Positions 37,855 through 58,549 are shown, counted from the first letter of the stretch. The stretch is DNA of 64,000 bases from an uncultured delta proteobacterium (GCA_963766175.1 CAVXZE010000001.1:257555-321554); one strand, 5' to 3'. The notes: generated by a model not told the origin, from the sequence alone. Numbers and translations are program-made.

Positions 37855-37930
37855 GCACGAGTAGCTCAGCTGGTAGAGCACCACGTTGCCAACGTGGAAG
37901 TCGCCGGTTCGAACCCGGTCTCGTGCTCCA
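37855..37930 (+). tRNA. tRNA-Gly (anticodon GCC), CCA encoded
   Basis: Manual cloverleaf. Acceptor GCACGAG/CTCGTGC, D arm GCTC-AGCTGGTA-GAGC, anticodon stem CCACG/CGTGG with loop TTGCCAA, and T arm GCCGG-TTCGAAC-CCGGT region. Discriminator T plus CCA. Confidence 0.93.
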
Positions 37931-37932
37931 GG
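37883..37932 (+). repeat. attL-type direct repeat (3' part of tRNA-Gly)
   Basis: acgttgccaacgtggaagtcgccggttcgaacccggtctcgtgctccagg, identical to 58500-58549. Confidence 0.85.
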
Positions 37933-37941
37933 GTTTTCGTA

Positions 37942-37979
37942 ACGCCCTCGCGGATTTGCCGCGGGGGCGTTCCGGTTTT
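37942..37979 (+). terminator. Rho-independent terminator after tRNA-Gly
   Basis: A 12-bp stem (acgccctcgcgg / ccgcgggggcgt) with loop atttg, followed by tccggtttt. Confidence 0.7.
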
Positions 37980-38310
37980 GGTCGTGTTTGGCGTCACGTG
38001 ACATCCCCAGTGCACGTGTAGCCGATTCCCGAATGAGGACGGGGAGCTAGCCGATCACGTACTGTGGGCACGCAATGGGCACGCAGTCCGGCAGAGTCGC
38101 ACTGCCGGGCCCACAATCGAACCATGCTCGAGGGTTGCTCCGGGGTTGGTGTCAGGGCTTCGCGTTCGTGCCGAGCCCCTAGGCGATGGCTGGCGTCGCG
38201 GACGCCCATGCCGCCCGCCAGCCAACGTATCCCGCGGCTGATCACGCACCTCGATAAGTGGCCGTGATTCGGAGGAAATCCAGTTATTGGGATGGACCCG
38301 GTCTGTCAAT

Positions 38311-38428
38311 CCAAAGTAGAAATGTCGGGATTCCAGCAAGTTAGAGATGTCGGGCGGGCCCCGGTTCAGGGATTGGCCGGAGCATCAGCCCGGGCCCTGG
38401 CGGTACGGATCTGGCGCTTCTCGCGAAG
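38311..38428 (+). mobile_element. Solo terminal fragment of the rve-transposase IS (end distal to the transposase gene)
   Basis: It starts with ccaaagtagaaatgtcggg...ttagagatgtcggg, an inverted match to the other IS terminus at 43270-43320. Positions 38340-38428 are 100% identical to 41891-41979, then homology stops abruptly. Confidence 0.65.
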
Positions 38429-38824
38429 ATGTCGCTGAGATCGTCTTTCCGCCCGTCTGACCCAGTCCCGGGTGCGCGAAGCTCGCTCTCTTCTCGAGTC
38501 CGAGAACGAGTGTTCGCTGGCTGTACCACCTGGGCACGTCCAGGTGCGTGCTCCGTAGCTCGCAATTCTGTGAACCCCCCAATCGGCAGAGAGGCTGACG
38601 GGGCAAGGTGGATCGAATGGGTGTACCTGCTCGTCCGTCACCATCCACGCCGCCCCCTCCCCGAAGGGTGAGGCAGCAGGAACTACAGCAACAAACCGGC
38701 AGTTCTAGTTGTCGTTGGGTGGCAAAAGTAATTGTCGTTGATCAACCGGCAGTGGTACTACAACCGCGGGCAGGTCAGCGCTGGATCACGACTGCTGGAT
38801 CAATGTCGACCTGACCGAGAAGGC

Positions 38825-39415
38825 TCAACCATCCTTCACCTTCCACTCGAGCATCAAGTCGACGTCGCACATCGACAGAGACCGGACCAGGACTCGGCCG
38901 CTTTTGTTGAAGGCCCGTAGGACGCCTTCGAAGACTCCGATCTCGTGCACGTCGGGAAAATTTCAGACGCCTCGCAGCGCGACGATCGCCCGACCCTCCC
39001 GGAATTCGAGCACCTCGGCTGAGGCCCCCTCCCCGGCGAGGAAATACGCCTTCGGCAGCAAGTGAAGGCCACGCTCGAACTCGGTGCCGAAGGCCATCAC
39101 GACCCTGCCGATATGTGTCTCCATGAAGGCGGGATACTGCAGCTGGCCGAGCCGGCGCACGCCCTCTCTCGGAGCTGCCTCGGGAGACGCGAGCGACGCC
39201 GACTCAGCGGCGACCTCGAGAAACTCCGGCACGGGGTAGTCCCGAAAGGCGAGATACCTCCCACGACCCGGACGCGTGCCAGAGCGCTTCTCTGCAGCGT
39301 CGATCATCGCCTGAAAGAACATGCCCTTGATTCGCACGTGTTGGGGCAGGCGGGCCAGTCGCTCCGGCAGGTCCAGCGGGCCGTCGAATCGAGGCACCTC
39401 GAACTCAGGGCTCAT
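38825..39415 (-). pseudogene. DUF2378/TIGR02265-like protein interrupted by an in-frame TGA
   Basis: ORF 38963-39415 (150 aa, ...FFQAMIDAAEKRSG...YLAFRDYPVPEFLEVAAESA...) ends at a TGA at 38963-38965. The same frame continues for 45 more sensible codons (NFPDVHEIGVFEGVLRAFNKSGRVLVRSLSMCDVDLMLEWKVKDG) to a TGA at 38825. Total 196 codons, the size of the two paralogs. Confidence 0.6.
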
Positions 39416-39526
39416 CGCCGCTTCTCCATCCCTCCCGCTATTCGAGCTGGGGCAGGATCCGCTTTAGCCTCCAGCGAGGGCTTTAACTGGACACGAGGGC
39501 AAGTCCCCATATTCCAGGGAGATGAC

Positions 39527-40826
39527 CTAGCAGGCTGCGGAAAAACCCCGTGCATAGCGTGCAATTCGATGATACGCGGTTGATAGGGGGTAGGGAGATG
39601 CGCGGAACCGATCAACCGCAGTCCACGATGTTCAGCTACGTGTCGCCGGAAGCCCGGATTCCGGACGATCACCCGCTCCGCGCGACGCGGGAGATGGCCA
39701 ATCGGGCTCTCGGGCGTCTGGACCGCAAGTTCCGCAGCCTGTACTCGCGGACGGGGCGTCCGTCGATTCCGCCGGAGCAGCTGCTGCGCGCGCTGCTCCT
39801 GCAGGTGCTCTATTCGGTTCGAAGCGAGCGGCTGCTGATGGAGCAGCTCGAGTACAACCTGCTGTTCCGCTGGTTCGTGGGGCTCGAGATGGATGATCGC
39901 GTCTGGGACGTGACGGTGTTCACGAAGAATCGGGATCGGCTGCTGCGGGGAGAGATCGCGGAGGCGTTCTTTCAGGCGGTGTTGGAGGAGGCGCGAGAGC
40001 ACGGCCTTCTCTCTGACGAGCATTTCACGGTAGACGGCACGTTGATCGAGGCGTGGGCGGGTCACAAGAGCTTTCGGCCCAAGGACGAGGGTAAGGGTGG
40101 CCGCGGTGGCGGACGGAAGGCAACGGAACGGGACTTCCACGGTGAGCGTCGGAAGAACGACACGCACGCTTCGACGACAGACCCGGAGTCCCGGCTGTTC
40201 CGCAAAGGGAAGGGGAAGGAAGCGAAGCTGTGCTTTATGGGCCACGTCGTGACGGAGAACCGGCATGGCTTGGTGGTGGCTGCGCGAACCACGCTGGCGA
40301 CGGGTACCGCAGAGCGTGAGGCTTCGGTGGCGATGATGAAGAGGCTACCGCGAGGCCGTCGATCGACGCTGGGCGGAGACAAGGGCTACGACACCCAGGC
40401 CCAGGTTCGGGATCTTCGAAAGCTGGGTGTCACGCCGCACGTGGCACAGAACGACAAGGGTCGGAGCAGCGCCGTCGACGATCGAACCACGACGCACGTG
40501 GGCTACGAGATCAGCCAGCGGAAGCGCAAGGCGATCGAGCAGGTCTTCGGTTGGGGCAAGACGGTGGGCCCGATCCGCAAGACGAAACATCGGGGCAGGG
40601 ACCGCGTGGGCTGGATGTTCACGTTCACCCAGGCGGCCTACAACCTCGTGCGAATGAGGAACCTGCTATGCCCGACGTAGCCAACCCGCCCGAGTGGAGC
40701 GCGAAACCGATGACGAGCCGGACAACAAGAGCGCACGAAACGCCGATTCCGCGCTCATGTACGAGCGAAAGCCCCTCGAACCCCCGGGTTTCCCTCCCTG
40801 TCCGGCGTTCTTCCGCAGCCTGCTAG
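39527..40826 (+). mobile_element. IS5-family insertion sequence (~1.3 kb)
   Basis: 20-bp terminal inverted repeats ctagcaggctgcggaaaaac (39527-) and gttcttccgcagcctgctag (-40826) match at 19/20. The CTAG-type ends are typical of IS5-group targets. The element carries a single transposase ORF. Confidence 0.8.
39598..40680 (+). CDS. IS5-family DDE transposase
   Basis: 360 aa. The N-terminal region (MFSYVSPEARIPDDHPLR...LLFRWFVGL) and the DDE_Tnp_1 region (HFTVDGTLIEAWA...GGDKGYD...RKAIEQVFGWGK) are typical of IS5/IS1182-type transposases. Confidence 0.9.
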   Translation: MRGTDQPQSTMFSYVSPEARIPDDHPLRATREMANRALGRLDRKFRSLYSRTGRPSIPPEQLLRALLLQVLYSVRSERLLMEQLEYNLLFRWFVGLEMDDRVWDVTVFTKNRDRLLRGEIAEAFFQAVLEEAREHGLLSDEHFTVDGTLIEAWAGHKSFRPKDEGKGGRGGGRKATERDFHGERRKNDTHASTTDPESRLFRKGKGKEAKLCFMGHVVTENRHGLVVAARTTLATGTAEREASVAMMKRLPRGRRSTLGGDKGYDTQAQVRDLRKLGVTPHVAQNDKGRSSAVDDRTTTHVGYEISQRKRKAIEQVFGWGKTVGPIRKTKHRGRDRVGWMFTFTQAAYNLVRMRNLLCPT

Positions 40827-41129
40827 GGCTTTCCCAGGAGCCCCCGACCCCCACAGGCCCGACAGAAGGCCCGGAGGGCGCCAGAGCGCTCCAACTCGGT
40901 CCGGGTGGTGTGAGGGTGGACCAGTCGGGCCGAGAAGATCCCAGGCACCGCCCCCGAGCGTGGGTCTGTGGGCGCAGAATCAGATTCCTGGGCGCTCTCG
41001 ACCCGTTGCGAAGGGGCACCATGCGTGAGGATCACCGGATCCCGAAACCCAACCCGCTAGGGCGCTTCTTCCCCGTGGTGAGCGATCCGGAGGAGGATCT
41101 CTGGAAAGGAGTCGATCGCGGCTGCGCGC

Positions 41130-41714
41130 TCAGCTTCGCTCGTAGCGCCAGTGCGAATCGGAGACCCGGATCAGCCGGTAGGGGGGCAGATACGGATGGA
41201 TGCGCTCCGACGTGTGCTGGATCATCCCCAGGATGACGTCGCCCAGCAGAGGCGGCAGCTCCTGCGCGCCGTTGACGTCCAGGACGATCATATCCTTCGC
41301 TTCCTCGCGAGCACGCAGGTCGCCCACCGTAAACATCGAGCCGAAAATGCTCACGATGAGATTCACGTACTTGAGCAGGTGCTGATTCTGCGCTGCCACA
41401 TCCACGCGGTCCACCACCGCCATCTGAGGATGGAGCCCGCTCTCGGCGAAGCGCTGCGCGACGGTTCGCCCTCGCTTCTGCAGATAGGCGGCGTCTCCCT
41501 GCCCCTCGATCTCGAAGAGAAGCTCGAGCATGCGCCCGTAGGAGGCGAGCGAGTACCAGGCCGTGGGCTCCAGCTCGCTGCGAAGGAGTTCCATGTCCTC
41601 CGGCTGGAGATGGTCTTCCAGAGTGGCAGGACTGATCCCGCCCCGTGACTCCAGGGAGCGCACGTCCCCGACGATCGAGGCCATAGCGGATCCCTTGATC
41701 GCAGCCGATGCCAT
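41130..41714 (-). CDS. Hypothetical protein, distant DUF2378-like paralog (194 aa)
   Basis: Same size, strand and general pattern as 38825-39415 and 45813-46391: a helical N-terminal half and a C-terminal half ending ...SHWRYERS. The family assignment is an inference from a weak resemblance. Confidence 0.5.
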   Translation of the reverse strand: MASAAIKGSAMASIVGDVRSLESRGGISPATLEDHLQPEDMELLRSELEPTAWYSLASYGRMLELLFEIEGQGDAAYLQKRGRTVAQRFAESGLHPQMAVVDRVDVAAQNQHLLKYVNLIVSIFGSMFTVGDLRAREEAKDMIVLDVNGAQELPPLLGDVILGMIQHTSERIHPYLPPYRLIRVSDSHWRYERS

Positions 41715-41877
41715 AGAGACCTCTCTTTTGGGCGCGGGACCCCGCCCGCTCCGTATTCCCCATATCGGGAATGGGGGGAATCCGCTTTAGACTGTGCGGG
41801 AAGAGTCTCAGCCGCGGAATAGGCTCGCGTTCACTCCATGGCGTTGGGGGACCGGTGGATGAGTTCTGAGAACAGAC

Positions 41878-43320
41878 AGGATTCCCGCGAGTTAGAGATG
41901 TCGGGCGGGCCCCGGTTCAGGGATTGGCCGGAGCATCAGCCCGGGCCCTGGCGGTACGGATCTGGCGCTTCTCGCGAAGGGTGACCTTCGGGCTGGAGAG
42001 GCGCTGTTAGTCCCGCTCTCGCTGATCGGCCTGGATCTTGGCCAGGACGGCTCCTAGGCGCTTGTTGGACACGATGTCGGCCTGCGTCACACGCCGGAGC
42101 TTGTGGAAAGCCCGGAACGGGAGACTCCGGCCCTCGCGTCGGATTTCGACGCGGCCACCTGCGTCCGCGTACACCCGGCACATGCGGCCCCGAAGGCGTA
42201 GGGTCTCCGGGCTGGGGTCGATCAAGTATACGCCGCCCCGGTAGTGAAGGGTCAGCTCTTTGGAGATCTTCCGATCTTCCTGCAAGGTGAAGATCCGCGC
42301 GAGGTCCTCGTCGTCGCGAACCGGGCGGTGGACGTCGTGATCGCTCAAGGGCTCTCTGCCGAATCGCTCGTTGTAGGCCGCCATGAACTCCGGCGCGTAG
42401 GCATTGGCTGCCTCCGTCGTAGAGATGCTCTGGAGACGGAGCTCCTTCACGAGTCGATCCTGCAGCGTGAGGTGCGCACGCTCGACACGCCCCTTTGCCT
42501 GCGGCGTGCTGGCGCAGATGATGTCGATGTTCAGTTCCGACAAGGCTCGACTGAACTGCGTCATCCCCACTGTCTTGCGTGGCTCGGTGGCGTTGATCCG
42601 AAAGATGCTGGCTTGGTCGCTGTAGAACGCGACGGGCTTGCCATGGCGTTCGAGGTACGTCCTCGTCGCCGCGAAGTAGCTGAACGTCGACTCCGAAGGG
42701 ACGAATCGAAGTTCCATCAGGCGACTCGTCGCATCATCCACGTAGACGAGGAGCGTGCACCGTGGGGCTCGGTCCTCGAACCACTCGTGATCGCAGCCAT
42801 CGATCTGGATCAGCTCCCCCAGGCAGGAACGACGGCGGCGAGGTTGGTGAATGCGTTGCCGCTGAGAACGGGGCACCCAAAGCTTGGCCTCGATCATCCA
42901 GCGCCGGAGGGTCTCGACCGACACCGCGACGCCGTGAACCGCTCGGAGCTTCTCGGCCGCGAGCGTCGGTCCGAAGTCGCTGTAACGCGACACGATCAAG
43001 TCCAGAGCGCGACGCCGCAGATCGTCAGGCAACTTCCGGTTGCTGGTCCGCCCACGCTTCCTCGAGACCAATCCCCGAGGACCTTCGATGCGGAGCCTCC
43101 TGCACAGGCGTTCGACCTGGCGGATCCCCAGGCCCAGTTGCTCGGCCGCCTGCGTTTGAGTCAGCCGGCGATCCAGGACGCGACCCAGAACCTCCAGCCG
43201 GTTCAGCTCCCTGCCACTGATCGTCAGGTACCCCGGGTCGTCCATGTCGGCCTCCCAGCACGACACGGTGCCCGAGACCCGACATTTCTAATGGGGAGAA
43301 ACTCGACATTTGCACTTTGG
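41878..43320 (-). mobile_element. Insertion sequence with a single HTH-rve transposase (ISNCY/IS1202-like architecture; family tentative)
   Basis: The termini carry duplicated AATGTCG(G/A)G motifs in inverted orientation: 41892 ttagagatgtcggg, and 43279-43319 cccgacatttctaa...ctcgacatttgcactttgg. Confidence 0.65.
42007..43266 (-). CDS. DDE (rve/integrase-core) transposase with N-terminal HTH
   Basis: 419 aa. HTH (TQTQAAEQLGLGIRQVERL) and rve core LIQIDGCDHEWFEDRAPRCTLLVYVDDATSR...FYSDQASIF...AKGRVERAH. Confidence 0.88.
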   Translation of the reverse strand: MSCWEADMDDPGYLTISGRELNRLEVLGRVLDRRLTQTQAAEQLGLGIRQVERLCRRLRIEGPRGLVSRKRGRTSNRKLPDDLRRRALDLIVSRYSDFGPTLAAEKLRAVHGVAVSVETLRRWMIEAKLWVPRSQRQRIHQPRRRRSCLGELIQIDGCDHEWFEDRAPRCTLLVYVDDATSRLMELRFVPSESTFSYFAATRTYLERHGKPVAFYSDQASIFRINATEPRKTVGMTQFSRALSELNIDIICASTPQAKGRVERAHLTLQDRLVKELRLQSISTTEAANAYAPEFMAAYNERFGREPLSDHDVHRPVRDDEDLARIFTLQEDRKISKELTLHYRGGVYLIDPSPETLRLRGRMCRVYADAGGRVEIRREGRSLPFRAFHKLRRVTQADIVSNKRLGAVLAKIQADQRERD

Positions 43321-43349
43321 GCTTACCCGGTCATCGATCTTGCCGCCGC

Positions 43350-43526
43350 CCGGTTCGCCTCCATTCGCTTCTCGTGCGCCCCCACTCGCGCGGCGGCGAG
43401 ATTGATGACCACCGTGTCCCCGTTGCCGAAGTAACACTCGACGGGCGTCTGACCGTTGGAGGCCGCATGGACACGGACAAAACCACGACCTCACGGACCA
43501 CCGCGCCAGCCCTCGACCCTACCAGC
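43350..43526 (-). pseudogene. Decayed 3' fragment of an IS3/IS481-like transposase gene
   Basis: The reverse strand reads ...HAASNGQTPVECYFGNGDTVVINLAAARVGAHEKRMEANR. This parallels ...HAAFNGQTPDEMYFGHGDAVVIDLSAARVRVRQERMKANR of the intact copy at 44816-45793. Confidence 0.6.
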
Positions 43527-43582
43527 TCTACATGAACGGGAGACACCTTCTGGCTGGCACGCTCCTTGCTGTGAACGATCGA

Positions 43583-43996
43583 TCAACAAGCGGCGGTATT
43601 GCCCTCTCGTGGTCGAACCTGCGCCAGAAGCGCCTCGAGTATGGACGCGAGTTGGCCGGGCGCTGCGCCCTTCTCGACGGCGCCGAGGGCTCCCGTCTCC
43701 TCGACCAGTCGCTCGAGTTCGGCCCGCTCCAACCCAGAGTAGAAGATGAACGCGGTGGGCTGTGCGCCGCGTGCAAGGTCTTGAACTCGAAGCACCTTCA
43801 GAAGCTCGTGACCGGAGATCCCCGGCATCTTGACGTCCAACACAACCACGTCGGGGCATTCGCGGAGTACCGCGACCGCGGTTCCCAGTGCTGTCGCCCG
43901 CGCAAGTACTTCGTGGCCTTGGCTCTCGAGGATCGCGCTGGCGATCTCTAGCGCCACCGGGTCATCGTCAACGACCATTACCTTCAACCGGGCCAT
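43583..43996 (-). CDS. Single-domain response regulator (CheY-like receiver)
   Basis: MARLKVMVVDDDPVALE...DVVVLDVKMPGISG...FIFYSG...VEKG. The acidic pocket, phospho-acceptor Asp, Ser/Thr and Lys are all in place. Confidence 0.85.
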   Translation of the reverse strand: MARLKVMVVDDDPVALEIASAILESQGHEVLARATALGTAVAVLRECPDVVVLDVKMPGISGHELLKVLRVQDLARGAQPTAFIFYSGLERAELERLVEETGALGAVEKGAAPGQLASILEALLAQVRPREGNTAAC

Positions 43997-44093
43997 GCGT
44001 GTCCCCAAGGGTGCCCTGCTTATCGGCAGGCCGGGGTCGGCTGTGAAGTGTCTCCCTGTCCGTCCCAAGAACCCTGCCGGCGCCTCTGGGCGC

Positions 44094-44363
44094 TCCCTTC
44101 GGTCCCACGGATGCCCTGCTCGGCACTGTCACGAGCTCCGGGGTCAACGCCGAGGGCAATCCGCTCAAGTGGACCGATACCACCGCGGCCAGCACTCTCG
44201 TGAACGTCACGGAGAGTCCCACCCGCGGCGATACCGAGGGCTGGGAGATCTACAACTTCACCGCGGACGCCCACCCGATCCATCTGCACCTGGCTGCGCT
44301 TGGAGGTGATCGGCCGGACCCTCTTCGACAGGAGTCCGAGTCCGAACGGGAACCCCCAGCCCT
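44094..44363 (+). pseudogene. Multicopper oxidase (CotA/bilirubin-oxidase-like) C-terminal fragment, frameshifted and truncated by IS insertion
   Basis: PFGPTDALLGTVTSSGVNAEGNP / (frame change) PLKWTDTTAASTLVNVTESPTRGDTEGWEIYNFTADAHPIHLHL / (frame change) RLEVIGRTLFD. The fragment ends at the IS terminus at 44364. Confidence 0.6.
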
Positions 44364-44421
44364 GCTGCGTTTCAGGACATTCTGAAGTGGAGGCGTTGCA
44401 GTTGCGACGCCCCTGAATTCA

Positions 44422-44814
44422 TTGAGCTTTTCTGTGGAGTGCCGCGGCTGTTGGGCCTGCCGATACGGGGGTAATGACGACCCTCCGCACTCGACGCTCC
44501 TACGACCACACCGCATTCGAGAAATGATCTGCGAGACCGGCGATCCAGACCTGTTCCCCGAGCTGAAGATCCCTCGGTCCACGATTCGAAACTGGTTTCA
44601 CTGGGGTATTCCTGACGTCGTCACGTGTGATCTGCTGTCAGTTGAAAACGCCGAGCTTCTGGCCGAAATACAGAAACTGCGTCATCGAGCGGCTGTGCTC
44701 GGAGCGATCGTCGGCCTGTTGATTGCAACGCTTCGCGTATCGGCGCGCCAACTGGACCGCGAGAGGCTTCCCGAAGGCAACGGGAAACGAGCACTGCTTC
44801 GGGCGAGCGAGTAG
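44422..44814 (+). CDS. IS orfA (small HTH/leucine-zipper-like protein)
   Basis: 130-aa ORF with an uncertain start; ATG at 44524 gives MICETGDPDL.... The coiled-coil-like AELLAEIQKLRHRAAVLGAIVGLL is typical of IS3-type OrfA. A TAG stop lies 1 nt before the orfB ATG. Confidence 0.55.
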   Translation: MSFSVECRGCWACRYGGNDDPPHSTLLRPHRIREMICETGDPDLFPELKIPRSTIRNWFHWGIPDVVTCDLLSVENAELLAEIQKLRHRAAVLGAIVGLLIATLRVSARQLDRERLPEGNGKRALLRASE

Positions 44815-44815
44815 G

Positions 44816-45793
44816 ATGCTACCGCTACGTGTGGCACTGCGGATCGCGCGGCTGTCGCCGTCTCGCTACCACGGCTGGCGACGCGCCGAGATCCGGTGCG
44901 AGCTTGACGATCGATCCAGCTGTCCGCGAAGCAAGCCGACACGACTGACAGCCGCTGAGGTGCGATCCGTGAAGCAAATGGTCGAGAGCGATGACCATCG
45001 CCACTTCTCGCTCCGAGGACTCGCACTCCGCGCGCAACGTATCGGAAGAGTGGTCGCGTCGCCGTCGCCGTGGTCTCGGCTGGCGCGAGAGGGCGGGTGG
45101 CGAAGGCCGCGCCGCCGTCTGTATCCAGCCAAGCCCAAGGTGGGCATCCGTGCCGAGGCCCCGAACGAGCTGTGGCACATTGACGTCACCATCATCAAGT
45201 TGCTCGATGGCACCAGGGTCTACCTCCACGCGGTGATCGACAGCTTCTCGCGGCGGATCCTGGCGTGGACCCTAGAGGAGCGGCTGGGGGCCGGTGGGAC
45301 ATGCCGGATTCTCTTGGAGGCCGGTCGTCGCCTGGGCACGCGTCCGGTCGAGACCACCGTGATGGCTGACTCGGGTACGGAGAATGTGAACGGGAATGTC
45401 AACGATCTGCTCGACCGCGAGGGGTTGAGGCGTGTCCTGGCACAGGTGGAAGGGAGCTTCTCCAACTCCATGATCGAGGCCTTCTGGCGATCCTTGAGGC
45501 ACGCATGGTTGTATCTGCACAACCTGGACGATACGGCAACGCTACGGCGCCTCATCGCGTTCTACGTGAGAGCGCACAATGAGACGATTCCCCATGCGGC
45601 ATTCAATGGTCAGACGCCTGATGAGATGTACTTCGGCCATGGGGACGCGGTGGTCATCGATCTTTCCGCCGCGCGTGTGAGGGTGCGCCAGGAGCGAATG
45701 AAGGCGAACCGGATGGCGACCTGCGGAGTCTGCGCAGGAGGGCATGATTTCGGTGCGTCGCAATTGCATCGGGCGGAGTGCAGAATGCCCTGA
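44816..45793 (+). CDS. IS orfB, DDE (rve) transposase
   Basis: DDE triad context LWHIDVT, MADSGTENV and NSMIEAFWRSL. ATG at 44816 lies inside ORF 44723-45793. Confidence 0.85.
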   Translation: MLPLRVALRIARLSPSRYHGWRRAEIRCELDDRSSCPRSKPTRLTAAEVRSVKQMVESDDHRHFSLRGLALRAQRIGRVVASPSPWSRLAREGGWRRPRRRLYPAKPKVGIRAEAPNELWHIDVTIIKLLDGTRVYLHAVIDSFSRRILAWTLEERLGAGGTCRILLEAGRRLGTRPVETTVMADSGTENVNGNVNDLLDREGLRRVLAQVEGSFSNSMIEAFWRSLRHAWLYLHNLDDTATLRRLIAFYVRAHNETIPHAAFNGQTPDEMYFGHGDAVVIDLSAARVRVRQERMKANRMATCGVCAGGHDFGASQLHRAECRMP

Positions 45794-45812
45794 GATGCAG
45801 CAGCGCGAGAAA

Positions 45813-46391: not shown

Positions 46392-46450
46392 CGGAGCTCC
46401 CGCTCAGTGTCGCCTTGATCGGCAGATCCGGCCGGCTGCTTGACATCGAG

Positions 46451-47559: not shown

Positions 47560-47876
47560 CCAAGGAGTTTGCCAGCGTACTACTGGGATTGGGCTCAGGG
47601 CACTCCGTCGCGAGGGGCTGATGGAAGCTCCGCTAGACGGAAGGGCTTTCGCAGCTTGCCAACGCGCGACTTCCCGAGCAGCCGGCTCTGGATGTCCCGC
47701 GAGAGTGACCGCTCATGAAGAGCACTCGCACGTAGCTGCATCGGGTGCGGAGACTCGTCATCGCACCCGTATCGGCAGGGCCGGCAATCGGGGAGTCTAT
47801 CGGAGAGGCTCAACGGATCCCGGGCCATCGCAGCCGGCAAAATGCCCGTTTCAGGACGCCTTGAAGCGCAGCACCA

Positions 47877-49622: not shown

Positions 49623-49984
49623 CGCCGCACCCCTTCAAGTGGGGCCTAGCGCGGACTCGCCCGCGAGGCGGTGTGCAGCATCACACCTATCGCTTCCACA
49701 TCGCGCAGCAGTACGGGTTCCGAGCCTGCGACCGCAGTGTGTCCGCGAGGCGTACTCCCTTGGATCGTGATGACCGCTACGGCTCCAGCGTGATCCAGCT
49801 CACGGTGTCCGCTGCGGTTCTGGGCGGAGGCGGCGAACGGCACCGTCACCTTCACTCGAAGATGTGGATGAGACTCCGGATGAGTTCAGCGAACAGACGG
49901 GTACAGCAGCTGTTGTGCGATCGATCACGCCGAGCTCTTCGCCGCGCACCGACCTCTCAGGGTGGGACTACAGAAGGGGGTTTC

Positions 49985-50716: not shown

Positions 50717-50937
50717 GGCCGGGCGTTCGGGCCGCCACGGTTGGTAGGGTCGGGGGCGGGCGCGGTAGCCCGTAGGATATCCCTTGGCCGTTGTGCGTCC
50801 TCACAATCGGTACTTCCCGAAATTGCTGGGCTTTTCTCCTCCTCGCTCTCGCCCGCCCAGCCACTCAGGGTACGGCAAGATCGAGGAAAGAATCAACCTG
50901 TGCCTGAGCGCGGGAATGGCGCAGCATCGCGCTCACC

Positions 50938-51078
50938 GTGCAGGCTTTGCTCGATCTCATGACCATGCTCCTTCGCTCTATGCTCGCCTTCTTCCGAAGC
51001 CGCAATCAGCAAGCAATCGTCGAACTGGCCCTGCGGCAGCAACTCGCAACCTACGCCCAGACGCGACCGAAGCCCAGC
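50938..51078 (+). pseudogene. N-terminal stub of a transposase-like gene truncated by the mini-IS
   Basis: LLRSMLAFFRSRNQQAIVELALRQQLATYAQTRPKP resembles the conserved N-termini (..ENLALRQQL..) of some rve transposases. The ORF runs directly into the mini-IS terminus at ~51078. Confidence 0.35.
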
Positions 51079-51348
51079 TGTGTTTCAGGACATTCTGGAG
51101 CGGAAGCGTTGCAGTTGCGATGCCCCTGAATTGATTGAGCTCTTCTATGATAGGCCTCGATTGCTGACTGAGATGTACTTCGGCAACGCGGACAGGGTGG
51201 TCATCGATCTTGCCGCCGCGCGGGTGAGGGCGAGCCAGGAGCGAATGAAGGCGAACCGGATGGCGACCTGTGGCGTCTGTGCAGGAGGTCATGATTTTGG
51301 GACGTCGCAATTCCAGCGGGGGGAGTGCGGAAGTTTCTGAGATGCAAC
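51077..51348 (+). mobile_element. 268-272-bp internal-deletion (MITE-like) derivative of the IS at 44364-45801
   Basis: The left ~75 bp parallels 44364-44437, including the IR tgtgtttcaggacattctgg. The right ~180 bp parallels 45623-45801, with the coding remnant EMYFGNADRVVIDLAAARVRASQERMKANRMATCGVCAGGHDFG and the right IR. Confidence 0.72.
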
Positions 51349-51363
51349 AGGGTGAGAAGTGGA

Positions 51364-53112
51364 TCAGGCCTCTCCGCGCAGTTCCGGCAACGCGACCCGG
51401 AAGGTCGTGCCAGCGCCGGGCTGCGAGTCGACGGTGATCTGGCCGCCATGGTTTCGGACGATCTGGTACGAGATGGAGAGGCCCAGGCCGGTCCCCTGCC
51501 CGACCGGCTTGGTCGTGAAGAAGGGATCGAAGATGTGCTCGATGGCGTCGTCCGGAATCCCGCAGCCCTCGTCCTCGATGGACACAATGACACAACCCGC
51601 TTCATACGCAGTACCTATGCGGATCGCGCCTTGCCGATCGATGGACTGGGAGGCGTTGATGAGAAGGTTGAGAAAGACCTGCTTGAGTTCCTGGGAACAG
51701 CCACCGACTTCGGGGATTTCCGCGTAGTAGCGCTCGATGCGACAGCCGGCCGGAAGCTGTGGCTTTGCCACCCGCAGCACCGCGTCGAGTAGGGGCTGCA
51801 AGGCGATGCGCTCGTGATCTCCGCCGTCGGCGCGGGAGAAGTCCTTGACGTCGCGAACGATGGTGGCGACCCGGTCCACACCCTCGACGCTCTCGTTCAT
51901 GAGCTCGCGCCCCTCTTCGATCTCCGCGTTGAGCTCGTGGACAAGCCTCGCGGAGAGCTTCGCGTGTACTGTGTCGAGGAGATTCACCATGGCACACAGG
52001 TTGGCGCGCACGTAGGCCATCGGGTTGTTGATCTCGTGGGCGATCCCGGCTGCGAGCTGGCCCACAGCGGCGAGGCGGTCGGATACGATGAGGCGACTGC
52101 GCAGGTTCGCGATTTCTCGCAGATCGCGCGCCACCAGGACTAGGCCGATCTGGTTCTGCTGTCTGTCGTAGAGTTGCGACATGGAGACCGATACCGGCAC
52201 TAGATCGCCGGCCAAGGAGCGCAAGAGGGTCTCTTGCTCGCGAAGCCCGTCCGAAGGATCGATCTCGGCCTCCTCCAGCAAGTCCGCCATGGTGCGACCC
52301 TCCAGGGTCCCAGGCTCGGCTCCGAGCAGCCGTTCCATTCCCGGATTGGCGATGCGGATGCGTCCGTCGAGGCGCAGCAGCGCGACGCCATCCGGTAGCG
52401 TCGTCAGGATCTTGGACGCGAAGGCTCCGGGCGCCATCAACGAGTAGCCGTAGCGGTAGAAGCTCCACGCCATCGCACCTACCAGCAGGGTGATAGCGGT
52501 TGTCCCCAGGCGGGGCGCGACATGCCCCATCGCAGGAAGCACACCGTCCGTCCACGTTCCGATCACCAGCGGTAGCGCGACCCCGGCGAACAGCATGTAG
52601 GCCTGGCGCCGCTCGGCCGATGGCGTCGTGGAGCGGAAGTCGCGAAGAGCGAGGAAAGCGCCCGCAAATAGCGTGCACGAGGTCAGGAGGTAGGCCGCCG
52701 GGAAGAGCGGGCCGACGGTGTAGCCCCAACCCCAATCGGTCTGCACGACGGAGGGGTGTAGCCAGGGCGTCGCGAGATCGAGCAGCACGAACGCGCCGGC
52801 AAGGCCGTAGAGCGAGGGAAGCAGCGGTCGCCAGCGAAGGGCTGGGTGACTCGTCAGAATGAGAAACAGATGCAGCGCGATCGGACCGATCGTTACCCAG
52901 CCCAACGAAGAGAGCTTGACGAGAAGAAGAACCGCCTGGGCGTCGTGGGCCGAATTCCAAAGCGCCTCACACAGCGCCCAGTGGGCGCCCGCCGCGCAGA
53001 GAAAGGCCCCCGTGCGGTTAGCGGGGTGGCGGGAATCGCGGACCAGGATCGCAGTCGCCAGGACGCAGTAGGCAACACAAGAAAGGATTGGCAGCAGGAC
53101 GAAGACCTTCAA
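51364..53112 (-). CDS. Sensor histidine kinase with N-terminal 7TM domain, copy 2 (paralog of 47877-49622)
   Basis: ORF open to 53292. A TTG at 53112 preceded by GGAG gives 582 aa, matching the 581 aa of the paralog. H-box HEINNPMAYVRANL, G-boxes DEGCGI and GTGLGLSIS. Confidence 0.85.
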   Translation of the reverse strand: MKVFVLLPILSCVAYCVLATAILVRDSRHPANRTGAFLCAAGAHWALCEALWNSAHDAQAVLLLVKLSSLGWVTIGPIALHLFLILTSHPALRWRPLLPSLYGLAGAFVLLDLATPWLHPSVVQTDWGWGYTVGPLFPAAYLLTSCTLFAGAFLALRDFRSTTPSAERRQAYMLFAGVALPLVIGTWTDGVLPAMGHVAPRLGTTAITLLVGAMAWSFYRYGYSLMAPGAFASKILTTLPDGVALLRLDGRIRIANPGMERLLGAEPGTLEGRTMADLLEEAEIDPSDGLREQETLLRSLAGDLVPVSVSMSQLYDRQQNQIGLVLVARDLREIANLRSRLIVSDRLAAVGQLAAGIAHEINNPMAYVRANLCAMVNLLDTVHAKLSARLVHELNAEIEEGRELMNESVEGVDRVATIVRDVKDFSRADGGDHERIALQPLLDAVLRVAKPQLPAGCRIERYYAEIPEVGGCSQELKQVFLNLLINASQSIDRQGAIRIGTAYEAGCVIVSIEDEGCGIPDDAIEHIFDPFFTTKPVGQGTGLGLSISYQIVRNHGGQITVDSQPGAGTTFRVALPELRGEA

Positions 53113-53319
53113 GACGGAGCTCCGAACTCTGACATCGGAGCCCCGGCGCCGCGCCTTGAAGTATCGGAGGCCGGAGGGCCAGACCGATCGGCTTGGGCGC
53201 CGGCCACATTGGGAGGGGACCCGGTGTGCCGGAGGGAGGGCGCTGCAACCGCCTGAAAAGGCTGGAGAAGACGAGCGAACTCGAACCGCCAACCTGTCGG
53301 TGAGAAAGGAACGTCAGCG

Positions 53320-54471
53320 GTGAAGGAATCCGCGAGCTTGCAGGCTCCCACATGGCAGGAGCCTGCAAGCGGGCCACTGAGCTGCACCGAGGGTGGCCTG
53401 CGGCCCCGGACGGTGGCCTACTCCGAGCTGATCTTCATGCTCTGCCATCTGTACTTCGAAGGAGAGGAAGCGAAGCGCTGCTGGGAGGAGATCGTCGCGC
53501 ACCGCGAAACCATGCAGGAGCGGTTGGGCTCGCCCGTCGACCTCCGCGTCGCACTCGCCAGCTACTTTCTGCAGGTCAATCGCAAGCTCGAGAACCCGAA
53601 GCTCATCGAGCTGAAGCTGTTTGAGGAGACCCGGGCTTCCGCCTACCGGGACGAGCTCACCGGCTTGTACAACTACCGTTTCTTCAGCGAGTTCCTGCGC
53701 TACGAGATCTCGAGAGCCGAGCGCACCAATACTCCGCTGTCCCTCGCCATGCTCGATGTGGACGACTTCAAGCACTACAACGATGAGAATGGTCACGAAA
53801 TCGGGAACGTGGCTCTACGGGAAATCGCCGGCTTGTTGACGGCGACCTTGCACAGGGCGGACATCGCGGCGCGCTATGGCGGAGAGGAGTTCGCCTTGAT
53901 CCTGCCCGCGACTCCCAAGAAGGGCGCTCAGGTCGTGGCCGAGCGGATCCGCGCGAAGATCGACGAGTACGGCTTCCCCAACCAGCAGACGCAGCCTGGA
54001 GGTAGGCTCACGGCCAGCGTGGGTGTGGCGACGCTTCCGGGCGACGCGCGAGAGACAGGCGAGCTGGTTGGCTGTGCGGACCGGGCGATGTATGCCGCAA
54101 AGGCCGAGGGGAAGAACCAGGTCCGCCTCTTCGGAAAAAGTTGCCGTTCCTACCATCGGGTCGGCGCCGATGTCGAGGGCTCCGTGCAGATCCTTGGGAG
54201 CGAGTTGATGCCCCTGACCTGCGTGGAGCTCAGCATGGGCGGGCTGCGCTTTCTCACGGATCGGAGGCCACCGCCAGGCGCCCTGATCGAGGTGACACTG
54301 AAATTGCCCGGGCCGCACGGGACGATCTCCGTGACGGGTCGGGTCGTTCAGGCGAGCTCGACCGACTCAGGCCGATTCGCAATCGGATCGCGGATACTGA
54401 GCATGGATGCAACGGATCAGCAGCGACTCACCAGCTACGTGAACCAGCTCACCGCACGCTCCGCCCAGTAA
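53320..54471 (+). CDS. Diguanylate cyclase (GGDEF, active-site GGEEF) fused to C-terminal PilZ domain
   Basis: DELTGLYNYRFF...LAMLDVDDFKHYNDENGH...RYGGEEFALILP. The C-terminal PilZ motifs are RSYHR and ELSMGGLRF. The start is uncertain: GTG 53320 or ATG 53437. Confidence 0.85.
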   Translation: MKESASLQAPTWQEPASGPLSCTEGGLRPRTVAYSELIFMLCHLYFEGEEAKRCWEEIVAHRETMQERLGSPVDLRVALASYFLQVNRKLENPKLIELKLFEETRASAYRDELTGLYNYRFFSEFLRYEISRAERTNTPLSLAMLDVDDFKHYNDENGHEIGNVALREIAGLLTATLHRADIAARYGGEEFALILPATPKKGAQVVAERIRAKIDEYGFPNQQTQPGGRLTASVGVATLPGDARETGELVGCADRAMYAAKAEGKNQVRLFGKSCRSYHRVGADVEGSVQILGSELMPLTCVELSMGGLRFLTDRRPPPGALIEVTLKLPGPHGTISVTGRVVQASSTDSGRFAIGSRILSMDATDQQRLTSYVNQLTARSAQ

Positions 54472-54691
54472 GATTGCAGGCAGCCGACTGCTGCCGGCGG
54501 AGGGCGGTGACGTGGTGTAGTGCGCCCATTGAGGCTCCCGTGTGATAGGAATGTCTCAAGCGTACCGCGTAGACTCATCTGCCCCTACGGTCAGAGAACG
54601 CAAGCAGTGGCGGGAAGCTCCGAGTATTTGACCGGGACAGTTGAGTGGAGGCTCCTCCTCTCTCAGCCATATCACCCATTAGAGTAGGGAA

Positions 54692-55519
54692 TTGTCACCC
54701 GCGCCGATCCAAAGGCTCCATGCCCTCCTCAAGCCCTACGCCAGTCGTGCCGAAATCAGGATTGCCATGGAAGCTCTCTCGGACTGGGTCCTGTGGCTCG
54801 GCAAGCTCTTCTTCGCGGTGGGCGGACTCGCCGCGGGCGTTGCCGTGCTGCGAGCGGCCCCGCCCGGCACGCGAGTGGGGTCTCACGCTCTCGGGGTCGG
54901 GGCCATCTTCATCGGCGGAATCGGCGTGGGGCTCTTCCCGATTGCCTCCAAATTCCCCGATTCACTCGCGGGTTACTCGATCTGGCTCATTGCGGAGAGC
55001 TTGATGCGTGCGGGGCTCGCGCTTCTGGGGTTCTTTCTGTGGCGTGTCTTTCGTCCCCGGAGCGCCGCAGCGCTGGCCGGCGCGGTGGGGTGCGTCGCGC
55101 CCCTGTTCGCGACTCTGGCTTGGGACCGGGTCGCCCAGCCGCGGTGGTGGGAGTACGACTACGCCCTCGCCAGTGCCTGCGCGGCACAGCTCGCCTTCGC
55201 CGTGCCCTTCGCGTGGTCCGCCGTCGAGACCGCGCTCGAGTGGCGGCGTTCGCAGAGGCGGGCGGCGCTCGGGCTGGCCGATCGCCAGGTCTCGCATCGT
55301 TTCCTTCTCTGGTGCGTCGCCACCAGCGCCTTCGTCGGGATCTGTCTCCTCGCCGTCTTGGTCGGCTGGCTCGGAGCCCACGGTTGGGCGGAGCCCGCCG
55401 CCGCGGCGAGGCTCGTGCGCGGCCTGCTCTATTTCGCCATCGTGGGCTCGCTCTGGCTCGGACTGAGCCCGCCCGCCTTCTACCGGCGTCGCTTCTTCGC
55501 CAGCGCTCCGGCAGCCTGA
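54692..55519 (+). CDS. Polytopic membrane protein, unknown function (~7 predicted TM segments)
   Basis: 275-aa ORF with repeated hydrophobic stretches (WVLWLGKLFFAVGGLAAGVAVL, LGVGAIFIGGIGVGLFPI, etc.). I recognise no motif. The start is uncertain. Confidence 0.55.
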   Translation: MSPAPIQRLHALLKPYASRAEIRIAMEALSDWVLWLGKLFFAVGGLAAGVAVLRAAPPGTRVGSHALGVGAIFIGGIGVGLFPIASKFPDSLAGYSIWLIAESLMRAGLALLGFFLWRVFRPRSAAALAGAVGCVAPLFATLAWDRVAQPRWWEYDYALASACAAQLAFAVPFAWSAVETALEWRRSQRRAALGLADRQVSHRFLLWCVATSAFVGICLLAVLVGWLGAHGWAEPAAAARLVRGLLYFAIVGSLWLGLSPPAFYRRRFFASAPAA

Positions 55520-55682
55520 CGCCGGTAGGGTCGAGGGCTGGCGCGGTGGTCCGTGAGGTCTAGGTCTTGTCTGTATCCCGGGTTTCCCCGCTCATGCCCG
55601 TGTAGACCCAACCGTGACTCCGTTTCCAGCCCAGCTGCGACTCAATAACTGGCCGTGATTCCACCAGAATCGCGTTTTCGGG

Positions 55683-56840
55683 ATGGACAGGTCGCAGGAT
55701 CCCGATCTGGTTCCGATGGTCTTGGAAGCGATGCGACGCTACGGGCCTCACGAGGTCCGAGCCGGGCTCGTGGCCTGCCAGCGCTTCCGGCTCACCGAAA
55801 GATCGCTGGATGGCGTGCTCATGTCGCTCAGCGATATCGAGGACGATGTCGCCGCATTTCATCTGAACGCGCTCATCGGGCGTGCTCCGGCCGATCTCCT
55901 GAATCGGCATGAAGCGCCCATCCTCGATGCACCGAACCTCCTTGCCGAGACCGCGGAGCGGCTTCATCGACGCCGCGAGCTCTACACTTGGCCTGCAGAG
56001 AAGCTCTGGAGTGAGCTCGAGGACCTCGCGGACCGATCGAGGGACCGATACGTCGGGGAGATCGATCACAGCTATGCCGAAGACCTGATCGACACACTCA
56101 GCGGCCACGCTGAGCCGGGCATCGCCAAGATCTGTGAGCTGCTGACGGCGGATGGCGCCTCGGATTGGCAGGAGATCTTCGTGGTCGAGCTCGCCGGGGC
56201 TCGAGGCATCCACGAAGCGATTCCCCGGCTCGTCGACAAGTTCCGCATCGACACGGACTACTTGCTGGAGTGCGCGGTACGAGCGCTCGCCCGCATCGGG
56301 GACCCGAGCGCCTCGCGTCTCATCCAGTCGGTGTTCTCTGCGGAGGACTGGAACTTCCGCAACTATGCCTCCGGCGTGTTGGCGGTCATCAAATCGGAAG
56401 CCTCCGAGGAGGCGCTCCTGGATCTGCTCGGCACCGAGCGCGACAGCGGCATCCGCGTTTGGCTCTGCCTGGGCCTCTGCCAGCAGTTCTCCCTGCGAGG
56501 CCTGCCGGTGATCCTGGAGGAGATCGATCGCGGCTACGATGAGAGCGCCGCCTCGTTGGAGCAGGAGGTGCTCCCCGTGGCCGGGTTGCTCGGTGTGGAG
56601 CTTCCGGAGGCCGACGCCTGGCGGCAGCGTGCGGAGGAGAGACGCGCCCGCTTCGAATCCCGGAAACTCGAGCTGGACACGCTGGCGTCCCGGATGAAGC
56701 CGGACGAAGACGAATTCGACCTCTTCGGCGAGTCTCCGGACACCTACCGCAGAACACAGCCGAAAACCGGACGCAACGCGCCCTGTCCTTGTGGGAGCGG
56801 TCGGAAGTTCAAGAAGTGCTGCGGTAGCCCCACAGGCTGA
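55683..56840 (+). CDS. HEAT-repeat protein with C-terminal SEC-C metal-binding motif
   Basis: PBS-lyase/HEAT-like repeats (AIPRLVDKF...[17 protein letters not shown]) and a C-terminal [19 protein letters not shown]. Confidence 0.7.
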
Positions 56841-56915
56841 AGGCGATCCAGTCGCACGCGCGTGCGAGTTCCGCCGATCGAGAAACCGCTGTGGATGAAA
56901 CCGGAGAGCGCGAGA

Positions 56916-58187
56916 TCAGAGGAACCGTGATAGCGGGAGCCCGATCACGCGGCGCGTGATCACATGGGCTCGATCCGTGTCGTAGAGAACGGCTCCCCAC
57001 GGCGCCTGCTTGCCGTAGTCGTCGAGAAAGATCTCCAAGTGCCGAATGTCGCTGATTCGGATTCGGCGCGCCGTCTTGATCTCGAGCGGAATCAGCCTGG
57101 GTCCGCGCTCCACCACGAAGTCGACCTCTGCTCCGCCGGCCGTTCTCCAGTAGTGGATCTCCGACCGAGGATGGGTTGCCTCGCGCCAGGTGAGGAGTCC
57201 AGAGAGCACGGCGTTTTCTGCAAACGCACCGAGGAGAGGGCTGGAGCGCAACGCATTGACGCTGCTTACTCCCGCGAGATGTGCCGCGAGACCCGAGTCC
57301 GCCCAGTAGAGCTTCGGCGCTTTGATGAGTCGCTTCGAGGGATTGACGGAGTAGGGTGTCACCTTGTGGACCTGGAACGTGGTCTCCAACAGACCGAGGT
57401 AGCGATGCGTCGTCGCTTGGGAGATCCCCGCATCACGACCGAGTTCGCTCTGGTTCAAGAGCTGCCCGAGCCGATGCACGGCGAGACCCATCAGACGGCG
57501 GAAATCCGGCAGGGAGGCGATCTGTGAGAGATCCCGCAGATCTCGCTCGAGATAGGTCTGTACGTACCCGTCGAACCACTGGGCGCGCTCGCGGGCGGAG
57601 CGGGCGAGCGATGCGGGCGGCATCCCCCCTCTCAGGATCTCGCGCTGCCAGTTGCAGTCGGCGGCAGGGAGTTCGTTGATGCGTTGGGCGACCTCCGCTC
57701 CCCGACGGCAGGACGCGACCTCTGACCACGGTGGCAGGCGGCCCTCGCCCTGTCTCTCGCCGGCCGTGAACGGCGCAAGCAGGAGATAGACCGCACGGCC
57801 GGCCAGCGAGTCGGCGACCTGACGCATCAGCAGCAGGTTCGCAGATCCGGTGAGAAGAAAGCGCCCGCGCTGGCGCCGGGCGTCGACGTCCCGTTTGATG
57901 GCGAGGAGCAGTTCGGGGACGCGCTGGACCTCGTCGAGGGTCAGTCGTCTACCCCGGGCGAGAAGGTCCTCGGGACGGTCCCGAGCGAGTTCCAGGACGT
58001 CGAAGTCATCGAGGCTCTGGAGGCTTCGGTTGGCAGCGGAGGGTAGGTTGCGAACCAGAGTGGTCTTCCCGGTCTGTCGAGCTCCGGAGAGCACGACGAC
58101 CGGGTGAGTCTCGAGAGCGCGTTCGACGGCGGGCGCGAGCGCCCGCGGACGATAAGTGGGCTCTTTCATGTAGTGAATGATAATCAT
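56916..58187 (-). CDS. AAA+ ATPase with DUF4143-type C-terminal domain
   Basis: Walker A LSGARQTGKTTL and Walker B RLTLDEVQ. The C-terminal half is typical of the AAA_14/DUF4143 family. An alternative start is ATG at 58169 (MKEPTYRP...). Confidence 0.85.
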   Translation of the reverse strand: MIIIHYMKEPTYRPRALAPAVERALETHPVVVLSGARQTGKTTLVRNLPSAANRSLQSLDDFDVLELARDRPEDLLARGRRLTLDEVQRVPELLLAIKRDVDARRQRGRFLLTGSANLLLMRQVADSLAGRAVYLLLAPFTAGERQGEGRLPPWSEVASCRRGAEVAQRINELPAADCNWQREILRGGMPPASLARSARERAQWFDGYVQTYLERDLRDLSQIASLPDFRRLMGLAVHRLGQLLNQSELGRDAGISQATTHRYLGLLETTFQVHKVTPYSVNPSKRLIKAPKLYWADSGLAAHLAGVSSVNALRSSPLLGAFAENAVLSGLLTWREATHPRSEIHYWRTAGGAEVDFVVERGPRLIPLEIKTARRIRISDIRHLEIFLDDYGKQAPWGAVLYDTDRAHVITRRVIGLPLSRFL

Positions 58188-58201
58188 TCACTACATGAAA
58201 G
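58163..58201. repeat. 39-bp perfect palindrome overlapping the ATPase start codon
   Basis: ctttcatgtagtgaatgat-a-atcattcactacatgaaag has 19-bp arms with no mismatch. It is AT-rich in a GC-rich context. Confidence 0.9.
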
Positions 58202-58499
58202 ACCAGCACGACTGAGCGGTGGGGAAGAGCGGGCTTCTGACGAGAACGCTGCACCCGGCGAACACGCAGTTCTCGAGCCGCAACTAATGCATTTAAGTAT
58301 TTGTAATGAAAACAGTTTCAAAGATCGCGGCTGGATTCGAGTCCGGCTCGCCCCATCGAGCGTAGTGAGAATCGAGGTCACCCCGGAACTGCTCGAACCG
58401 CGTGCCCACTGCGTGCCCAAACGGGCACGCTGCTGCGGCTTGGTGCGGCTCCTTGCGGCTTCCTAGCTGGAATCCTCAGGCTTTTCGGGCTCTTCGGGA

Positions 58500-58549
58500 A
58501 CGTTGCCAACGTGGAAGTCGCCGGTTCGAACCCGGTCTCGTGCTCCAGG
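58500..58549 (+). repeat. attR-type direct repeat (displaced 3' tRNA-Gly fragment)
   Basis: Identical 50-mer with no 5' half of a tRNA upstream. It is followed by its own terminator-like hairpin at 58558-58586. Confidence 0.85.

Follow-up and report, generated by a model that had tools for sequence, protein, structure and literature searches.

How does a transfer RNA (tRNA) gene come to be followed, 20.6 kb downstream, by an exact copy of its own 3′ part, with no integrase gene between the two? The question is raised by a stretch of 64,000 nt from an uncultured delta proteobacterium (GCA_963766175.1, CAVXZE010000001.1:257555-321554), hereafter the window, numbered from its first letter and carrying the gene in question, a tRNA-Gly(GCC). 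The host is an uncultured myxobacterium; a genome scan with the UDP-sugar dehydrogenase encoded in the window gave matches exclusively in Myxococcota or in metagenome-assembled genomes (MAGs) named 'delta proteobacterium'. A first-pass annotation of the sequence had proposed that the interval between the two tRNA copies is an island left by an element that brought its own tRNA 3′ end and terminator, and that was later immobilized or eroded by insertion sequences (ISs). The analysis reported here indicates that the interval 37883-58549 is very probably a degenerate, non-autonomous island at the tRNA-Gly(GCC) 3′ end, formed by the collapse of an array of at least two elements.

The window was compared with 80 species-level genome loci, 71 of which have the tRNA-Gly gene, and with metagenome contigs. 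The comparisons used most below are with two stretches (L082 and L085) of a single contig from the same species as the window, along which the order of elements was taken from contig coordinates, with a pair of loci having 89% flank identity (L086/L087) and with one metagenome contig (L094). Units whose attachment arms resemble those of the window are referred to as A-type, and integrase/Prim-Pol elements with different arms as C-type.

The tRNA-Gly Repeat and Its Two Terminators

The intact tRNA-Gly(GCC) gene (37855-37930, plus strand) is the sole tRNA called by ARAGORN in the whole window, and Rfam, run on 37-61 kb, recognizes it as well (RF00005, 69 bits) and calls no other. Its sequence is repeated on the same strand from tRNA position 29, in the 5′ strand of the anticodon stem, to 2 nt beyond the CCA: the left copy (37883-37932, tRNA positions 29-76 plus GG), which forms the core of the left attachment site attL, and the right copy (58500-58549), which forms the core of the right attachment site attR, are identical at 50 of 50 positions, both by a repeat finder and by direct reading, and the match lengthens to 54 nt if one mismatch is accepted. 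As previously proposed, the right copy has no 5′ half; on alignment, the sequence preceding 58500 bears no resemblance to the tRNA 5′ half, and neither ARAGORN nor Rfam calls a tRNA at that place. A 25-mer of the repeat has only these two sites in the 64 kb, even with three mismatches tolerated, while none is expected by chance, and a dispersed family of the 50-mer, which would have argued against an island, is therefore not seen within the window.

Each copy is followed by a terminator-like stem-loop with a U-run, on the plus strand, whose stem falls within 1-2 nt of the position given by the first-pass annotation: hairpin A at 37941-37971 (fold of -29.4 kcal/mol, z -3.4) and hairpin B at 58556-58588 (-26.1 kcal/mol, z -4.3). 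Hairpin A is also found after the tRNA or a tRNA fragment in L082, L086/L087, and L094. In contrast, hairpin B is of the native tRNA-Gly type. Because B-type hairpins (AACGCCCTCGG...CCGGGGGCGTTTTCGTT) come after the intact tRNA-Gly gene in many Myxococcota loci, the right-hand tRNA fragment and hairpin B are likely the displaced native ones, while the 3′ part of the intact gene, from 37883 onward, and hairpin A would have been supplied by an incoming element. This polarity, suggested by the first-pass annotation, agrees with the B-type hairpins, with a break of synteny at 37930, and with the chromosome shared on the right side, both described below.

Recombinase, Transfer, and Phage Genes Are Missing

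Coding open reading frames (ORFs) were chosen by third-position guanine-plus-cytosine (GC) content and scanned with Pfam, NCBIfam, PADLOC, and PHROGs; the remaining stop-to-stop ORFs of at least 60 aa between 37.6 and 64 kb were joined and run against Pfam in a six-frame scan. In these annotated genes and six-frame ORFs, there is no Pfam match to Phage_integrase, Resolvase, Recombinase (large serine), HTH_17/excisionase, relaxase, coupling-protein, or phage families; the same scans find no conjugation gene in the island, and PHROGs gave nothing relevant for the hypothetical proteins. The six-frame scan adds just Response_reg and PilZ domains to the inventory of the island. The window has neither the phage structural or replication genes nor the integrase that a prophage would carry (six-frame Pfam, PHROGs). 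A custom hidden Markov model (HMM), built from the integrases of relatives at the same tRNA-Gly, gave two significant matches on the minus strand (37869-38054 and 58381-58599), which turned out to be the translated tRNA core and not integrase remnants. Likewise, a tblastn search of the window with the integrase and island proteins of the relative L001 returned chance-level matches, except for a shared IS. The earlier view of an island devoid of tyrosine or serine recombinase, excisionase, and conjugation genes therefore withstands the six-frame Pfam, PHROGs, and custom HMM searches.

Attachment Arms and a Second-Arm Scar

Next to the left repeat lies a conserved non-coding stretch, the A-type left arm A1 (37931-38297, plus strand), which shares 76-89% identity with the arms of L082, L086, and L094; conservation extends over ~205 nt in all examples and over ~365 nt in three of them. 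A1 contains the tandem 11-mer TGGGCACGCAaTGGGCACGCAg at 38065-38086, and these 11-mers are putative arm-type recombinase-binding sites. On the other side, the A-type right arm of ~100 nt (58396-58499, plus strand), directly upstream of the attR core, does not differ between the window and L082 and is also conserved in L086 and L094. It carries two copies of TGGGCACGC in inverted orientation (58400-58419) and three copies of TGCGGCT with a 10-nt period (58434-58460). The TGGGCACGC motif is present in two copies per arm, and four of its five matches in the window fall in the two arms (0.9 expected). Short periodic repeats in both arms have the look of lambda-type attP arms, attP being the attachment site of the element, and we infer by analogy that those of the window may have had such an attP-arm function.

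The exact 22-mer TGGGCACGCAATGGGCACGCAG of the window (38065-38086) has one viral and 12 metagenome matches, with contigs L092, L095, L098, L100, L102, L103, and L104 among the carriers. In at least six contigs, it is located 20-40 nt past the 3′ end of another tRNA gene and/or inside the terminal 3′ part of a tyrosine-integrase frame. L092 and L104 differ in how the 22-mer is oriented with respect to the integrase, and it therefore resembles a DNA site rather than the result of a coding constraint; it may be a widespread arm or regulatory site. The possibility that the left arm is itself the remnant of an integrase 3′ end found no support, as integrases of L104-type contigs share merely the 22-mer with it.

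Importantly, the end of a second A-type left arm, A2, is present inside the island at 55641-55690 (plus strand). Corresponding to the last ~50-70 nt of such an arm, it was detected as repeat D6 and by arm alignment, where it aligns with the left arm over about 70 nt. A2 joins a 5′-truncated gene for a HEAT-repeat/SEC-C-motif protein directly, with the joint at 55688/55690 and ~166 nt missing relative to L082; the block of 99.76% identity shared with L082 begins at 55690. A 58-nt IS-type inverted repeat (55521-55578) abuts the A2 sequence. Judging from these sequence relationships, A2 is what a lost internal attachment site has left behind.

The tRNA-Gly Locus in Relatives

Relatives place the left border of the island at the last base of the tRNA gene. 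The alignment with L001 (96.7% identity over 11.4 kb) ends at 37930, the final tRNA base, and in L001 a 498-aa tyrosine integrase gene follows straight after the tRNA, on the opposite strand. Similarly, the same-species stretch L085 is 99.03% identical to the window over 11.46 kb and its alignment also stops at 37930; beyond the tRNA, it encodes a 442-aa tyrosine integrase (L085 11485-12813), a Prim-Pol/DUF3987 primase-helicase, an HTH_17 protein, and a small resolvase, all belonging to a C-type element. More generally, an integrase ORF lies at most 3 kb downstream in 16 of the 71 species loci that have the tRNA-Gly, and from these sequence comparisons the gene is a recurrent integration hotspot.

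Of note, integrase frames on the minus strand run into the tRNA-Gly 3′ end in L022 (11508-12857), L042 (13554-15011), L048 (10159-11451), and L070 (11628-12887), with tails that read ...LEHETGFEPATPTLAT; in these four loci, the integrase frame thus contains the attachment core at its 3′ end. In addition, about a third of the relatives have contigs that end at most ~260 nt past tRNA-Gly (L005, L007, L009, L010, L012, L014, L020, L028, L039, L044, L045, L047, L055, L060, L062-L064, L071-L073, L078, and L105), and such assembly breaks may reflect variation of the downstream DNA within populations.

The right border is defined by L082, which shares 55690-64000 with the window at 99.76% identity. 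This block includes the HEAT/SEC-C gene, an AAA_14 gene, the tRNA fragment, hairpin B, a 236-aa ORF, and the genes for a beta-carbonic anhydrase (61070-61723, minus strand) and the NADP-malic enzyme MaeB (from 61787). In the more distant L083 (81-90% identity, with the MaeB region at ~90%), MaeB and the region of the 236-aa ORF (82%) are kept while the tRNA fragment is absent and the left neighbors are different, and chromosomal DNA therefore resumes just past 58549. The left flank of the island is composed of housekeeping genes, for a succinate-dehydrogenase-type flavoprotein, a CDP-alcohol phosphatidyltransferase, and the UDP-sugar dehydrogenase. A 20-kb region common to all relatives, which would have spoken against an island, is thus not observed: L001 and L085 diverge after 37930, and L082 shares only the DNA from 55690 onward.

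The same-species contig is also informative as to how the island may have been built. L082 has no intact tRNA and instead two 3′ fragments, one of which is equivalent to the attR of the window. The second (3266-3312) begins at the anticodon loop and is followed by a hairpin near-identical to hairpin A and then by a 365-nt arm with 76% identity to window positions 37931-38297. The full order on this contig is the tRNA gene, an 18.85-kb integrase/Prim-Pol/HTH_17/resolvase element, a tRNA fragment, a 3.4-kb unit made of a left arm, the HEAT/SEC-C gene, and the AAA_14 gene, another tRNA fragment, and then the chromosome as in the window; an accretion structure is hence present in this species. The window is without the 18.85-kb element and has instead 17.3 kb (38298-55640) that are absent from the parts of the same-species contig that are seen, L082 and L085, which are 5.7 kb apart.

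Further loci have A-type units. In L086/L087, A-type arms surround a 4.8-kb unit with unrelated cargo. In L094, a right arm leads through a tRNA fragment to a left arm, in a tandem arrangement, with UPF0014 and ABC-ATPase genes beyond. No integrase is found in any of the A-type units of the window, L082, L086/L087, and L094. Past the A-type unit of L086, which is closed by a tRNA fragment with three mismatches (16213-16260), comes a C-type hairpin without an integrase, and L087 has an equivalent arrangement; an AAA_14/DUF4143 ATPase gene (16541-17758) and then a MazE/PIN pair follow in L086. By its sequence, this stretch looks like another decayed unit, with the same ATPase family once again at an island end.

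A Probable Collapsed Array of A-Type Elements

The following scenario is based on the anatomy of the locus and on the standard model for islands in tRNA genes (tDNA). A tyrosine integrase would have recombined the attP of an element with the tRNA gene, this attP bringing a copy of the tRNA from anticodon stem to 3′ end together with its own terminator hairpin; since the repeat starts in the anticodon stem, it fits the anticodon-centered class of sites. At least two A-type elements would have integrated in tandem, after which a deletion would have removed the internal attachment site and any integrase, and four IS families would have rearranged the interior. What is left over would be attL (regenerated tRNA, hairpin A, and left arm) and attR (right arm, displaced 3′ fragment, and hairpin B), enclosing a cargo of two histidine kinases, a receiver protein, GGDEF-PilZ, PilZ, and HEAT/SEC-C proteins, and an AAA_14/DUF4143 ATPase. 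Because of the second, truncated left arm and of the middle tRNA fragment in the same-species strain, the 20.6 kb are assigned to at least two units, and the simplest reading of these sequences is that the lineage of the window formerly had a tandem array whose internal site was deleted. As its integrase is missing, the island would be immobile by itself, and would move only via a compatible integrase acting in trans or after accretion.

Several observations weigh against this scenario. First, A1, A2, and the L082 arm are mutually only 74-76% alike, despite the 99.76% identity of the adjoining DNA. Second, no A-type element with its own integrase or transfer genes is found among the one viral and 12 metagenome matches of the 22-mer, of which only L094 is A-type. 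Third, an empty site, that is, the tRNA directly followed by the sequence from 58550 onward, was looked for as the first-pass annotation had proposed, and none of the relatives and metagenome contigs examined has one: right-flank genes lie at most 10 kb from the tRNA in none of the 80 genome loci, MaeB relatives (87-90%) have other left neighbors and no tRNA fragment, and the contig of an 86%-identity relative ends at the tRNA. Fourth, the composition of the island is barely distinct from that of its flanks, with a GC content of 0.646 (0.667 on the left, 0.628 on the right) and a tetranucleotide correlation to the left 38 kb that goes from ~0.95-0.98 to ~0.93-0.96. The borders that were expected to stand out in composition thus display a slight dip and no sharp break, and the cargo therefore probably comes from related genomes or has been resident for a long time. 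Finally, B-like hairpins are carried by some elements too, so that the native status of hairpin B is likely rather than proven.

Among other explanations, the one that survives best is that A-type units are naturally integrase-less cargo cassettes, or satellites, inserted or exchanged at tRNA-Gly by an integrase provided in trans, e.g., by C-type elements. We consider this unlikely. It would account for the four independent A-type units (window, L082, L086/L087, and L094) with conserved arms, entirely different cargo, and neither an integrase nor a remnant of one, as well as for the tandem order of right arm, tRNA fragment, and left arm in L094 and for the accretion of an A-type unit and a C-type element in the same species; moreover, the TGGGTGCCC repeats of the C-type arms are, in reverse complement, one base off the A-type repeat. 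However, the A-type units all come from one narrow clade, and vertical inheritance of old arms combined with turnover of the cargo explains them equally well. In addition, the arm repeats of the two types are oppositely oriented, their proximal repeats differ (TGCGGCT in A-type and TGCAG-type in C-type arms), and there is neither evidence of excision nor an empty site. It is similarly doubtful that the A-type arms mark a family of still-mobile integrase-less cassettes, stacked or swapped at tRNA-Gly, perhaps by the integrase of a co-resident integrase/Prim-Pol element; if true, this would constitute a tRNA-anchored cassette array in Myxococcota.

A single 20.6-kb element, integrated only once and deprived of its integrase by IS insertions, would be in line with the one repeat pair, the one left arm beside the tRNA, the one right arm, and the four IS families inside, and is close to what the first-pass annotation had put forward. 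While the IS-eroded and integrase-less character of the island stands, its one-element version does not: a left-arm remnant (55641-55688) is fused to a truncated gene, and in the same-species strain the HEAT/SEC-C and AAA_14 genes form a distinct unit of 3.4 kb that has a tRNA fragment and a left arm to itself, which makes a single integration quite improbable. Lastly, the absence of an integrase, and nothing further, would suit a 50-bp repeat that had nothing to do with site-specific integration, whether an incidental duplication or one of a dispersed family of tRNA pseudogenes, and this has a negligible chance of being correct given that there are only two copies in 64 kb, a repeat boundary in the anticodon stem, conserved arm repeats beside both copies, and integrases at the same junction in relatives.

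Relation to Known Systems

Remnants of this kind have been defined as cis-mobilizable elements (CIMEs), which have kept attL and attR and lost the genes for integration, within a three-step model of integration, decay, and accretion; examples are CIME19258 and CIME302, located beside ICESt1 and ICESt3 in Streptococcus thermophilus (PMC5704250). Like a CIME, the island of the window lies at the 3′ end of its target gene, between attL and attR, and has no integration or transfer genes. Both sites have been retained, with identical 50-bp cores and arms common to three other loci, and a related strain displays tandem accretion with an element that uses this site and bears an integrase. Unlike the known examples, its host is an uncultured myxobacterium, and the partner is a C-type integrase element with Prim-Pol/DUF3987, HTH_17, and resolvase genes and no conjugation genes in the ~15 kb seen (L085). 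By structure, the island matches a CIME, with a putative parent of the integrative and conjugative (ICE) or integrative and mobilizable (IME) type and a putative mobilization in cis.

Regenerated tDNA and a displaced fragment have also been used to mark island ends by the Islander algorithm, with anticodon-centered and T-stem classes of sites (PMC4383910). The window resembles the anticodon-centered islands in having an intact tRNA gene, a displaced 3′ fragment on the same strand, a repeat running from the anticodon stem to the 3′ end, and variable content among close relatives, whose synteny breaks at the tRNA end. In contrast, Islander requires an integrase inside the island, and that of the window, which has none, would be filtered out. 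In the same phylum, the attP of myxophage Mx8 is inside the int coding sequence (PMC6070905). Cores within the 3′ end of an integrase frame in L022, L042, L048, and L070 are comparable to it in the position of the core, whereas the window is without an integrase and phage genes.

The island is thus real but ordinary, a CIME-like remnant of a tDNA island, and what novelty is left resides in the family of integrase-less units with conserved arms. It reveals no new mechanism. It nonetheless provides a case of one tRNA-Gly gene serving as a recurrent landing pad in uncultured Myxococcota, and of stacked elements decaying to integrase-less islands with signaling and candidate defense genes. MAG annotation could benefit from such cases, as island finders that depend on an integrase would overlook the island of the window.

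Gene Content of the Island and Minor Observations

The gene fragments, accessory signaling genes, and four IS families listed in the first-pass annotation were all recovered by Pfam or NCBIfam. From left to right, A1 is truncated by a solo end fragment of an ISNCY element (38310-38428, plus strand), recognized by a direct repeat (D2, 95% identity to 41869-41979) and by an inverted repeat with 43269-43297 (I7), and followed by a fragment of a DUF2378 gene (38963-39415, minus strand; PF09536, profile positions 8-132 of 177 only). An IS5-family IS with terminal inverted repeats (39526-40827, plus strand; transposase 39550-40680, transpos_IS5_4, 282 bits, inverted repeat I4) precedes the ISNCY-family IS (41869-43297, minus strand; transposase 42007-43266, transpos_ISNCY_2, 479 bits, repeats D2 and I7). 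Farther on is an IS3/IS481-like IS (44358-45811, plus strand; repeats D1 and D3), with an rve transposase (44723-45793) recognized by Pfam and NCBIfam IS3/IS481 matches that stay below cut-off; a partial second copy is present at 51071-51358, and the IS is 88% identical to the copy in the L001 island. The IS630-family element (46450-47560, minus strand; transpos_IS630, 114 bits) has 32-nt terminal inverted repeats (I5, 94% complementary) and an ORF that covers the N-terminal half of the transposase alone (profile positions 1-140 of 299).

The signaling genes, which belong to two-component and c-di-GMP signaling, encode a response-regulator receiver protein (43586-44128, minus strand; Response_reg, E 2e-13, found by the six-frame scan), a seven-transmembrane (7TM) sensor histidine kinase (47877-49622, minus strand; HisKA_7TM, HisKA, and HATPase_c), a PilZ-domain protein (49316-50716, plus strand), a 7TM-PAS sensor histidine kinase (51364-53292, minus strand; Pfam), and a GGDEF-PilZ diguanylate cyclase (53320-54471, plus strand; GGDEF, E 1e-45, plus PilZ). 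The coordinates of the PilZ protein are those of the longest ORF, and its start is probably downstream of 49622. A membrane protein is encoded between the cyclase and the HEAT/SEC-C gene (55683-56840, plus strand; Pfam), whose product has 385 aa in the window and 425 aa in L082. The last gene before the right arm, on the minus strand, encodes the AAA_14/DUF4143 ATPase (56916-58187; Pfam), a candidate defense protein on the basis of its match to PADLOC PDLC04790 (defense candidate PDC-S01, E 2.7e-119).

Part of this content is enclosed by two 58-nt inverted repeats (43469-43526 and 55521-55578; 90% complementary) that are 12 kb apart and have the receiver gene, two ISs, both kinases, and the GGDEF-PilZ gene between them. 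These repeats may represent the termini of a composite or unit transposon, for which a target-site duplication is not apparent. Close to the right end, a 41-nt palindrome (58162-58202), made of two perfectly complementary 20-nt arms (TCTTTCATGTAGTGAATGAT and ATCATTCACTACATGAAAGA) separated by a single base, overlaps the AAA_14/DUF4143 gene at its start codon; the palindrome is conserved in L082 and has an operator-like look.

Beyond the right border, GC content reaches its lowest values for the window (0.59-0.63) at 58550-61000. This region, without a match in Pfam, NCBIfam, or PHROGs, is nonetheless 81-82% conserved in L083; it seems from these sequence features to be lineage-specific core DNA and not part of the island. 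A 60-nt stretch in the right flank (60298-60357), also present in L082 (8455-8514), has a 93% identical copy inside the L094 island (reverse complement, 59-118) and may be a small dispersed repeat.

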